Assembly (NCBI GenBank): GCA_024413465.1
Contig: JAKSVU010000001.1
Location: 21,949-85,948 of the forward strand
Length of the DNA stretch: 64,000 bases
Reading direction: 5' to 3'
DNA from: Alphaproteobacteria bacterium
GTDB lineage: Bacteria; Pseudomonadota; Alphaproteobacteria; CAAGCB01; CAG-977
In this document: one piece after another, positions 38,789-40,561 of the stretch
How positions within the stretch are numbered: the stretch's first letter is position 1
How the letters are laid out: the number at the start of each line of letters is the position of its first letter
The notes under the pieces: generated by a model
The model's database searches: none
The model's input: the letters and a program-made list of their open reading frames with translations, nothing else
Told to the model about the DNA's origin: nothing
Position numbers and translations under genes: made by a program

Positions 38789-40561
38789 ATGGGAATTAGA
38801 TTAACAGATGAAAATAGATTGTCGACTACTTATCCAGAATTAGCTACTGAATGGCATCCTACAAAGAATAACGGATTAACACCAAATGATGTTTCATTTG
38901 GATCACATAGAAAAGTTTGGTGGCTCTGTAAAAAGGGACATGAATGGATCGCAAATATTAGTAATAGAACTAAACATGGTAGAGGGTGTCCATTCTGTAG
39001 TCACCAGAAATTAGAAGTAGGAGTTACTGACTTTGAATCAGTATGTCCAGAGGCTGCAAAAGAATGGCATCCTACTAAAAATGGGAATTTAAAACCTTCA
39101 GATGTGATGTTTGGTACACACAAAAAAGTATGGTGGTTGTGTAGTAAGTGTGGATTCGAATGGAAAGCAGAAGTAAAATCTCGGTATTATGGTTGTGGTT
39201 GTAGTAGATGTAATAAAGGTGCCTTTTTTAATATTCCTATTGTTGGCATTAATGATTTGGCAACAATAAGGAGTGATTTAGTTAAATATTGGGATTTTGA
39301 AAAGAATAGTCCATTGACACCAAAAGATGTTACTTATGGTAGTGGCAAAGTTGTATGGTGGAAATGTAAAAATGGACACGAATACAAATCATCTATAGAT
39401 AGTAGATTAGTGTCGAATAATTGTCCTATATGCCTTCGTAGAAGAAGAACTTCATTTCCAGAACAAGCTATTTATTACTATATAAAACAAAAGTATCCAA
39501 ACGCTATAAATAGTTATAAAAATATATTTGATAAGGGAATGGAGTTGGATATTTATATTCCAGATATTAAAATAGGAATAGAGCATGATGGTACATATTT
39601 TCACAGTAGTCATATAAATATTGATAGAGACAGTCGGAAATATGAGATATGTAAGAATAATAATATTAGACTGATTAGAATAGCTCATAATAGAAAGTGC
39701 AACAAACAGAATGCTGATTGTATAATTGAATATAGTAGAAATACTGATTTAGAAATTCAGAAAGCAATTATTTCTCTCTTTGAAATTCTTAATCTTGATT
39801 TTTCAGATATAAATATAAAAAGGGATAAATTTGAGATTCTTCAATACTTGGAAACTATGGATTTATCATTAGAGTCAGCATATCCTTCAATAGCAGCCGA
39901 GTTCAATATTGAAAAAAATAATGGTTTGTTGCCTTCTTATTTCCATCCAGGTTCAAATGAAAAAGTGTGGTGGAAATGTAATGCATGTGGACATGAATGG
40001 AAAGCAACAATTTGTGGTAGAACAAGAGATGGAGATGGATGTTCTTTATGTGGACGTGTACGAGGGGCAAAGAAAAAAGTTTTATATCACTTAAACATTA
40101 ATGGTAGTTTGGAAGAAAATAGTCCAGAATTATTAGAATTTTGGGATTATGAAAAAAATGATATTTTACCTTCAGAAATTATTGCTACATCAACTAAAAA
40201 AATTTGGTGGAAATGTAGTTTTGGCCATGAATGGAGTAGAGATTTAGCTAATATTTTAAGAAAGGGAAAGGGGAAAAATAAATGTCCTTATTGCGAAAAC
40301 AAGCGTATATTACCGGGATTTAATGATTTAATTACAAAAAATCCAAAACTTGCTAGTGAATGGGATTATAAAAAAAACACAGATATAGATCCAACGACAA
40401 TAGGAGCAGGATCTAGTAAAAAGGTATGGTGGATTTGTGGTAAGTGTGGGTATAGTTGGTGTGCGTTAATTTGCAGCAGAAATCAGGGGTGTGGATGCCC
40501 TCAATGTGATAATCAAAGAAAACGTGGTAATCAATATGCGAAAAAATATATCGAAGAATAG
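38789..40561 (+). CDS. Multi-zinc-ribbon protein with central Vsr/DUF559-like PD-(D/E)xK endonuclease domain (590 aa)
   Basis: Six repeats of about 55 aa have the pattern L..EW...KN..L.P.DV..GS.KKVWW.C..GHEW.......R...GCP.C (three N-terminal, three C-terminal). The central segment ELDIYIPDIKIGIEHDGTYFHS...DRDSRKYEICKNNNIRLIRI matches the DUF559/Vsr endonuclease core. Confidence 0.7.
   Translation: MGIRLTDENRLSTTYPELATEWHPTKNNGLTPNDVSFGSHRKVWWLCKKGHEWIANISNRTKHGRGCPFCSHQKLEVGVTDFESVCPEAAKEWHPTKNGNLKPSDVMFGTHKKVWWLCSKCGFEWKAEVKSRYYGCGCSRCNKGAFFNIPIVGINDLATIRSDLVKYWDFEKNSPLTPKDVTYGSGKVVWWKCKNGHEYKSSIDSRLVSNNCPICLRRRRTSFPEQAIYYYIKQKYPNAINSYKNIFDKGMELDIYIPDIKIGIEHDGTYFHSSHINIDRDSRKYEICKNNNIRLIRIAHNRKCNKQNADCIIEYSRNTDLEIQKAIISLFEILNLDFSDINIKRDKFEILQYLETMDLSLESAYPSIAAEFNIEKNNGLLPSYFHPGSNEKVWWKCNACGHEWKATICGRTRDGDGCSLCGRVRGAKKKVLYHLNINGSLEENSPELLEFWDYEKNDILPSEIIATSTKKIWWKCSFGHEWSRDLANILRKGKGKNKCPYCENKRILPGFNDLITKNPKLASEWDYKKNTDIDPTTIGAGSSKKVWWICGKCGYSWCALICSRNQGCGCPQCDNQRKRGNQYAKKYIEE

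Follow-up and report, generated by a model that had tools for sequence, protein, structure and literature searches.

The 64,000-nt stretch analysed here (hereafter the window), from contig JAKSVU010000001.1 of an alphaproteobacterial genome assembly, contains at 38789..40561 on the + strand an open reading frame (ORF) of 590 amino acids (aa) with an ATG start, which combines six DUF4379 repeats with a Vsr/EDxHD-type nuclease domain. The encoded protein is identical to MJ250_00330, a 'hypothetical protein' in an NCBI metagenome-assembled genome (MAG) of Alphaproteobacteria, and is laid out as three DUF4379 repeats, a nuclease-like domain of ~140 aa and three more repeats. The nearest homologue (P0019; 62% identity) is on a contig of 2.1 kb whose flanks give no information. 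The gene is best read as behaving like a mobile cassette of one gene that targets the 3′ ends of genes for tRNA or transfer-messenger RNA (tmRNA; the two together t(m)RNA). A compositional signature of recent transfer was rejected, as the GC content of the nuclease gene (0.32) and that of its third codon positions (GC3, 0.196) are the same as those of the neighbour genes.

Upstream of the gene, ARAGORN placed a tRNA-Met gene with the anticodon CAT at 38546..38623 (+ strand; Rfam tRNA, 56.6 bits). Because a C1:A72 mismatch is present, this tRNA is an initiator (tRNA-fMet), and its gene is the target of an insertion. A repeat search showed that the last 41 nt of the functional tRNA plus ATA form the first copy of a direct repeat (38583..38626, + strand; 98% identical to the tRNA of the related locus L083), and that the second copy (40606..40649, + strand) duplicates the tRNA-fMet 3′ end in a degenerate, non-functional form. 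The two 44-nt copies share 86% identity, with the six mismatches confined to the first 21 nt and full identity over the remaining 23. They are spaced 2,023 nt apart and bracket 38789..40561 as the sole long ORF, in agreement with the original prediction, made from the letters of the window, that the gene sits alone in a tRNA-targeted insertion. According to the ORF list, there is no integrase gene inside this repeat-bounded insertion. A terminator scan found a terminator-like hairpin right after the tRNA, at the left end of the insert (38631..38660, + strand), and a conserved bidirectional terminator hairpin that is common with ccrM (40649..40681, + strand; 92% conserved in L083). In the syntenic relatives a terminator lies directly 3′ of the tRNA, and the hairpin at 40649..40681 may be read as the original flank of the tRNA.

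A group II intron or other ribozyme context was also considered and rejected: Rfam finds only the tRNA in 38000-41000, and an intron would not fit into the 165 nt before the ORF or the 44 nt after it. The initiator tRNA itself, at 78 nt, contains one additional base in the T-arm, where ARAGORN draws a 4-bp T stem; the extra base is also present in the tRNA-fMet of the relatives (GTGAGG or GTGTGG before the TTCAAAT loop). A sub-threshold Rfam match to the Staphylococcus small RNA S774 at 38454-38565 (40.6 bits versus a gathering threshold of 48, E=0.006) spans the upstream region and the first 20 nt of the tRNA, and is probably due to chance.

We then compared the same site in related genomes. 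L083 is 85% identical to the window in DNA, and its CcrM protein is 97% identical. The alignment runs through rnhB and ccrM up to exactly 40649/40650 and resumes at the tRNA; between the same tRNA and the same terminator, L083 carries a GNAT acetyltransferase gene and not the nuclease. The nuclease is likewise missing from more distant relatives, among them the syntenic L099, L101, L108, L117 and L118, which keep the upstream genes (those for a pentapeptide-repeat protein and a Sel1 protein, and tRNA-fMet). Since the relatives keep the genes of the site without the nuclease, the latter is an accessory insertion and not a core gene; an ordinary core gene would have counted against the first proposal. 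The exact empty site, with the tRNA end followed by the ccrM terminator within 30 nt, had no match in metagenome contigs; with the tRNA end alone as query, 28 loci were retrieved.

The ORF with six repeats, three on each side of the centre, and a likeness of these repeats to DUF4379 had both been proposed beforehand, and both were confirmed by profile search. Pfam DUF4379 (PF14311) matches in six stretches (E=1.7e-112, 368 bits versus a gathering cut-off of 24.5), and the WW.C motifs are found at aa 44, 115, 190, 394, 473 and 547, with a period of 71-79 aa and a domain of 56 aa. Pfam describes DUF4379 as a 'probable treble clef zinc finger'. From Pfam and the motif positions, the repeats were placed on the + strand at 38831..39004 (repeat 1, aa 15-72; best Pfam stretch 18-72), 39044..39217 (repeat 2, aa 86-143), 39269..39436 (repeat 3, aa 161-216), 39881..40054 (repeat 4, aa 365-422), 40118..40297 (repeat 5, aa 444-503) and 40340..40513 (repeat 6, aa 518-575). 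All six harbour candidate zinc ligands, C-x2-C or C-x3-H and then C-x2-C (C-x3-H first in repeats 1 and 3, C-x2-C first in repeat 2), as well as the WW / GHEW scaffold. In 500 sampled repeats of the family, the scaffold W..N..P..WW.C..GHEW....R...GCP.C is near-fixed (89-100% per position), and hypervariable positions are interspersed in this otherwise rigid framework. Such a pattern is compatible with modular recognition, without being a proof of it.

The only solved relatives of DUF4379, in sequence searches and Foldseek, are the kinetoplastid mitoribosomal proteins mS66, mt-SAF33 and 6yxx_E2. A phmmer search with the window protein gave E-values of 1e-7 to 1e-6 against 7aor_at, 6sga_Fd and 6hiv_DS, and the predicted full-length model matched kinetoplastid DUF4379 proteins in Foldseek with E-values from 1.5e-10 to 7.6e-5. 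This model has a predicted local distance difference test score (pLDDT) of 81.8 and a predicted template modelling score (pTM) of 0.40. The individual domains are thus predicted well and their relative placement is not, so that structure prediction, which had been suggested as a check, bore out the repeats and left the arrangement of the domains poorly predicted. On either side of the cut site, the DUF4379 arrays most likely provide an extended arm of modules that bind nucleic acid.

The central Vsr/EDxHD-type nuclease domain (aa 217-357; 39437..39859, + strand) contains a candidate active site consisting of E225, D254, E265, D267, H272, D281 and K284. We aligned the central region of 42 diverse homologues (profile A1). 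S222, E252, D254, E265, G268, H272 and K284 are invariant in this alignment, and E225, D267 and R297 are near-invariant, with E225 and D267 conserved in at least 90% of the sequences. When profile A1 was searched against all PDB sequences, the top match was 3R3P, the catalytic domain of I-Bth0305I (E=1.7e-5); with the single window sequence, the match to 3R3P_A reached only E=0.69. The conserved residues map to E170, D196, E206, N208, H213 and D222 of I-Bth0305I, and the roles of residues in Vsr and I-Bth0305I were taken from PMC3239194. The motifs TSFPE(225), ELD(254)IYIP, IE(265)HD(267)GTYFH(272) and D(281)SRK(284) hold the complete EDxHD set (E225, D254, H272, D281) as well as the family-typical extra acidic residue, E265, at the position of Vsr F62. 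Because these motifs supply every EDxHD residue, a Vsr/DUF559-type fold and active site are supported, and judged from the alignment the central domain appears to be a Vsr-type restriction-endonuclease fold with its catalytic residues kept. By analogy with Vsr and I-Bth0305I, D254 would hold Mg2+ and H272 would act as the general base, assisted by E225, E265, D267 and D281.

The proposed Vsr/DUF559-type core was therefore upheld for the fold and the active-site residues, with none of the loss of catalytic residues that had been feared, but not for membership in a curated Pfam family. The best nuclease score of the window protein in Pfam was 21 bits, to MTES_1575 (REase_MTES_1575; cut-off 38.2), PvuRts1I-like_N gave a sub-threshold match (E=0.006), and the DUF559 and Vsr models gave no match in this protein. 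Individual family members did match such models at E<0.1 (among the 42, MTES_1575 in 31, DUF2726 in 20, DUF559 in 17 and Vsr in five). PHROG 3339, labelled 'homing endonuclease', matches the core with E=3e-16, and the single match in PADLOC-DB 2.0, a weak one (E=0.0019), is to a model also named 'homing endonuclease'. In addition, profile A1 gave a weak, non-significant match (E=0.2) to PDB chain 9teh_I (9TEH_I), deposited as a recombination directionality factor. It covers the N-terminal half of the nuclease domain (TS.PEQ ... D.. ... IE.DG); the literature that we looked up gave no support for a nuclease-fold directionality factor of large serine integrases.

Among known systems, the protein is of the EDxHD/Vsr-type homing-like endonuclease kind, with the DUF4379 arrays and the t(m)RNA-linked single-gene cassette as its variant features. 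It shares with the I-Bth0305I/EDxHD family, which includes phage Hef (PDB 3R3P; PMC3239194), a Vsr-fold domain with the pattern E...D...(E.x)...H...D. The structural zinc site known from Vsr is missing in both I-Bth0305I and the window protein; set against the account of Vsr in PMC3239194, the window protein has the motif IEHDGTYFHSSHINID with no Cys at the zinc positions, and F271 stands where Vsr has W68. In the EDxHD family the nuclease is fused to separate modular DNA-binding parts, putatively as in the window protein, and free-standing members occur in both the EDxHD and the DUF4379-nuclease families. However, I-Bth0305I has NUMOD/helix-turn-helix motifs at its N-terminus and a C-terminal nuclease, whereas in the window protein the nuclease is central and DUF4379 arrays lie on both sides, with no NUMOD/helix-turn-helix region N-terminal to it. 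I-Bth0305I is encoded in a group I intron of phage recA and acts as a homodimer with a footprint of ~60 bp. The window gene, by contrast, is chromosomal, without an intron or intein, at a tRNA 3′ end with a 44-nt target duplication. Two marks of the EDxHD family are its presence/absence polymorphism at a conserved target, which we also observed here (L083, L099, L101, L108, L117 and L118 are without the gene), and a location in an intron, in an intein or between phage genes, which the window gene does not have.

The comparison also took in Vsr itself and the DUF559/DUF2726/MTES_1575 proteins (PD-(D/E)xK clade 58, PMC3424549), with the window protein below every curated Pfam cut-off. Unlike Vsr, it is no housekeeping repair enzyme, lacks the zinc-site Cys residues and the intercalating Trp residues, and has six extra zinc-ribbon modules. 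A study from 2025 in Nucleic Acids Research (PMC12350094) described homing endonucleases, encoded in group I and II introns of phages, that combine CapR/DUF4379/DUF723-like repeats with an EDxHD/Vsr nuclease; its authors see in them a large, hitherto unrecognised outgroup of that family and note thousands of relatives that are not annotated. Compared by description, those proteins share with the window protein several ~60-aa zinc-binding modules plus a Vsr-like nuclease, but they have three to five repeats followed by a C-terminal nuclease and are found in phage introns, whereas the window protein, encoded on a bacterial chromosome at a tRNA gene, surrounds its nuclease with bona fide DUF4379 repeats, three on each side. 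By the same comparison, it very probably belongs to this outgroup.

The architecture had originally been called novel, which did not hold. More than 7,700 database proteins match at E<1e-5 and share the plan repeats-nuclease-repeats with 6-12 repeats, and most homologues have 700-1,000 aa and 10-12 repeats around the same central domain. The nuclease-domain profile retrieved 30,079 cluster representatives at E<=1e-3 (8,618 at E<=1e-10), among which the nuclease domain takes variable positions; proteins with DUF4379 repeats and a Vsr-type nuclease number tens of thousands. Such proteins are known from gut and rumen bacteria (several phyla), some fungi and giant viruses, and from 166 plasmids and 112 phage records. 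The name 'zinc-ribbon domain-containing protein' is already in use for members at NCBI. Homologues in Campylobacter phages are annotated as putative homing endonucleases, and Campylobacter phage genes are described in the literature as homologous to Hef, the phage EDxHD-family endonuclease. In Listeria phages A511 and P100, gp39 consists of one DUF4379 domain and the nuclease (A511 gp39 aligns with aa 162-351, 37% identity, E=3e-21), and a 'putative restriction endonuclease' of marseilleviruses (Lausannevirus, Insectomime) has four DUF4379 domains (PMC5513546). The giant-virus and Listeria phage proteins are made of the same two building blocks as the window protein, but differ from it in the number and order of the repeats and in their viral hosts. 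The claim that members are experimentally uncharacterised did stand, as the thin DUF4379 literature yielded no biochemical study of any DUF4379-nuclease protein.

Next we studied the genomic surroundings of the family. A locus scan of one genome per species with a 7-sequence subgroup alignment gave 429 loci, of which the best 80 were studied; because of this alignment, these 80 represent the subgroup closest to the window protein and no other. They stem from gut and rumen Clostridia, Erysipelotrichaceae, Elusimicrobia, Alphaproteobacteria, Lentisphaerae and Acholeplasmatales, and most of them encode proteins of 560-660 aa with the 3+3 plan. A tRNA lies within 450 nt in 13 of the 80 loci, compared to ~2.5 expected from background density, and its 3′ end points towards the gene in all 13. 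In L063, a tmRNA is directly upstream of the nuclease gene, and L063 and L005 have a common 2.2-kb cassette (94% identical) that starts in the last 14 nt of the tmRNA. The repeat in L005 was rejected as a plain tmRNA 3′ end, because the resemblance is limited to the last ~13 nt. In L005, L019, L026, L038, L043 and L063, the nuclease gene is alone in units of 2.1-3.7 kb between direct repeats of 42-93 nt. The repeat in L026 is the end of tRNA-Leu together with its terminator, and in three loci from Elusimicrobia the gene is followed by a repeat of the final 12 nt of tRNA(CAT) and then by a terminator.

Long flanking repeats were found for 6 of 68 target genes and for none of 51 distant control ORFs (p=0.037). 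When nearby ORFs were included in the control, 3 of 63 were positive, all three of which lie next to the nuclease gene. Neighbour genes in 19 loci were mostly housekeeping genes. One subclade of the nuclease spans Alphaproteobacteria, Elusimicrobia and Lentisphaerae, with 6 of its 13 members adjacent to a tRNA, and the MAG RUG11086 has two copies of a 3+3 nuclease gene (contigs L012 and L022; 68% identical in protein).

Two of the repeat-bounded loci had a further peculiarity. At 3991-8666 of L038 the repeats interleave as A - nuclease - B - A′ - Na/Pi cotransporter gene - B′ (A 3991-4083, A′ 6491-6583, B 6150-6251, B′ 8565-8666), which is the order expected from single-crossover (Campbell-type) integration of a circular A-nuclease-B fragment. 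In L026 (6474-8417), a gene for a transporter of the major facilitator superfamily type lies directly downstream of the cassette, and the 3′ part of this transporter gene is partly duplicated in two segments of 206 and 226 nt with 87-89% identity.

Of the three functions first offered for the protein (a selfish homing-type nuclease, a toxin or a stand-alone defence nuclease), the first fits best, given the likeness to I-Bth0305I, the PHROG label and the phage annotations; defence is less likely. We give about an even chance to a free-standing selfish, site-specific DNA endonuclease with nuclease-driven, homing-like spread of the cassette, for which we infer DNA cleavage, target specificity and mobility driven by the nuclease. 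The 2,023-bp cassette (the gene plus ~250 nt of flanks) was inserted at the initiator tRNA gene, into its 3′ end. This rebuilt a functional tRNA and left a decaying 44-nt copy of the tRNA end beside the original terminator. The enzyme would cut t(m)RNA-gene 3′ ends that are free of the cassette, and repair of the break would copy the cassette in. The duplicated tRNA segment may serve as a portable short homology for repair, which would permit spread between distantly related hosts. Nuclease-driven spread would explain how the same lone gene comes to lie between repeats in different phyla without an integrase.

Several observations weigh against a homing-type endonuclease. Classical homing does not make target duplications, and a duplicated tRNA 3′ end is a hallmark of integrase-mediated integration. 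The functional tRNA copy in the window is unchanged, and therefore self-cleavage would somehow have to be avoided. The window protein alone reaches none of the curated Pfam nuclease thresholds, no cleavage activity or target site is on record for DUF4379-nuclease proteins, and the enrichment of flanking repeats is only modestly significant (see the p-value above). Moreover, the relatives carry different inserts at the same place. L099, L101, L117 and L118 have a GC-rich insert of ~150 nt after tRNA-fMet and its terminator, with a short ORF (MNISGSAEAKRRQRR...), which closes with the tRNA 3′ end once more (L118 also has the terminator twice), and L108 has a gene for a 202-aa small serine recombinase 225 nt downstream. 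The tRNA-fMet 3′ end is therefore a general insertion hotspot in this clade. Finally, a large serine recombinase (Resolvase and Recombinase domains) is found beside the nuclease in three loci from Elusimicrobia: intact in L046 (2412-4157), in the same orientation and 31 nt upstream of the nuclease gene, degraded in L024 (2965-4157), and nearby in L075 (595-1740). None was found in the remaining loci.

The hotspot and these recombinases also speak for the main rival, which we take seriously as a possibility while considering it unlikely: an att-flanked islet, either cis-mobilisable or a deletion remnant, that was inserted by a tyrosine or serine integrase encoded elsewhere. The nuclease would then be cargo, kept as addictive or useful, and not the engine of mobility. 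The tmRNA and tRNA genes are well-known integration sites of islands, and a 23-nt identical core with a diverged outer part is the classical attL/attR picture. Like t(m)RNA-integrating islands and their integrase-less cis-mobilisable derivatives, the window cassette is inserted at a 3′ end, with the gene reconstituted and a direct repeat at the far boundary. It differs from them in measuring only 2 kb, in having one gene and no integrase, and in the recurrence of the same gene across phyla. Indeed, none of the seven repeat-bounded units (2.0-3.7 kb) contains an integrase, and they have room for the nuclease gene only. A tblastn search of the 64-kb window with the large serine recombinase of L046 gave no match, and the neighbours in 19 loci, mostly housekeeping genes, also speak against this rival. 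If islands had decayed at random, the same lone gene would not have been left behind seven times across phyla. Furthermore, strand exchange by serine integrases takes place at a 2-bp core and yields no repeats of 12-93 nt.

A bolder form of the homing-type reading, in which these genes make up a previously unrecognised class of nuclease-only mobile elements with a single gene and no integrase, transposase or intron, seems doubtful to us. Here, a Vsr-type nuclease guided by exchangeable zinc-ribbon arrays would cut conserved tRNA/tmRNA 3′ ends, and the gene would integrate by break-stimulated recombination via the t(m)RNA fragment that it carries. The repeat arrays would be a natural modular DNA-reading scaffold. 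The model would account for the target duplications of 12-93 nt and for spread between bacterial phyla. None of the findings contradicts established biology.

We judge it improbable that the protein is a stand-alone nuclease for defence or of a restriction-like kind, for instance one that is modification-dependent or recognises foreign DNA, and is simply carried in a variable hotspot. The sub-threshold likeness to REase_MTES_1575 and to the N-terminal nuclease domain of PvuRts1I-like proteins, which are modification-dependent enzymes, would suit such a function, as would the position of the gene in the variable region downstream of ccrM and the annotation of the marseillevirus homologues as restriction endonucleases. 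However, the lone PADLOC match is weak and its model is itself a homing endonuclease, no partner genes were found, the flanks are housekeeping genes instead of defence islands, and phages themselves carry the family. Cassettes that are multi-copy, patchy and t(m)RNA-linked suit selfish spread better.

It is very improbable that the protein is an RNA-binding (tRNA or rRNA) factor or a domesticated, non-cleaving one, as might be thought by analogy with the eukaryotic organellar relatives of both domains. The solved DUF4379 structures are all mitoribosomal and the gene adjoins a tRNA, but the family-wide conservation of the EDxHD catalytic residues argues for an active phosphodiesterase. The tRNA link concerns the DNA of the gene, through the duplication, and many different tRNAs, and the gene is missing from close relatives and is therefore no core factor. 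A type II restriction-modification pair with the convergent neighbour methyltransferase (40687-41775) is extremely improbable and in effect refuted: the genes are adjacent and the methyltransferase matches models of type II and orphan methyltransferases, but it belongs to the CcrM type of N6-adenine methyltransferases, has a RAMA domain and scores 575 bits with the CcrM model (equivalog cut-off 830), the nuclease lies in a separate insertion bounded by direct repeats, and L083 to L086 all keep the ccrM-rnhB synteny without the nuclease.

If the homing-type reading is true, the sixth family of homing endonucleases (EDxHD) would be far larger and more varied in architecture than its few characterised members suggest, and some small tRNA- or tmRNA-linked islets may have been made by nucleases and not by integrases. 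Tandem zinc-ribbon modules around a compact nuclease could then be a new modular scaffold for the recognition of long DNA sites. If an integrase moves the cassette, the locus would be an ordinary small genomic islet with a hypothetical nuclease.

The genes around the insertion are conserved to different extents. On the - strand, 40687-42488 encodes the CcrM-type methyltransferase and then RNase HII; this rnhB-ccrM pair is syntenic in all relatives examined, and the region downstream of ccrM is different in each. Directly upstream of the tRNA, 35262-38475 encodes two proteins, one with pentapeptide repeats (758 aa) and one with Sel1/TPR repeats and a signal-like N-terminus (316 aa), and the trio of pentapeptide, Sel1 and tRNA genes is syntenic in L099, L101, L108, L117 and L118 (36-48% identity). 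Further along, at 42655-46203, lies a gene for a 1,182-aa pyruvate:ferredoxin oxidoreductase of the nifJ type, which together with a GC content of ~31% fits an anaerobic alphaproteobacterium of the gut or rumen.

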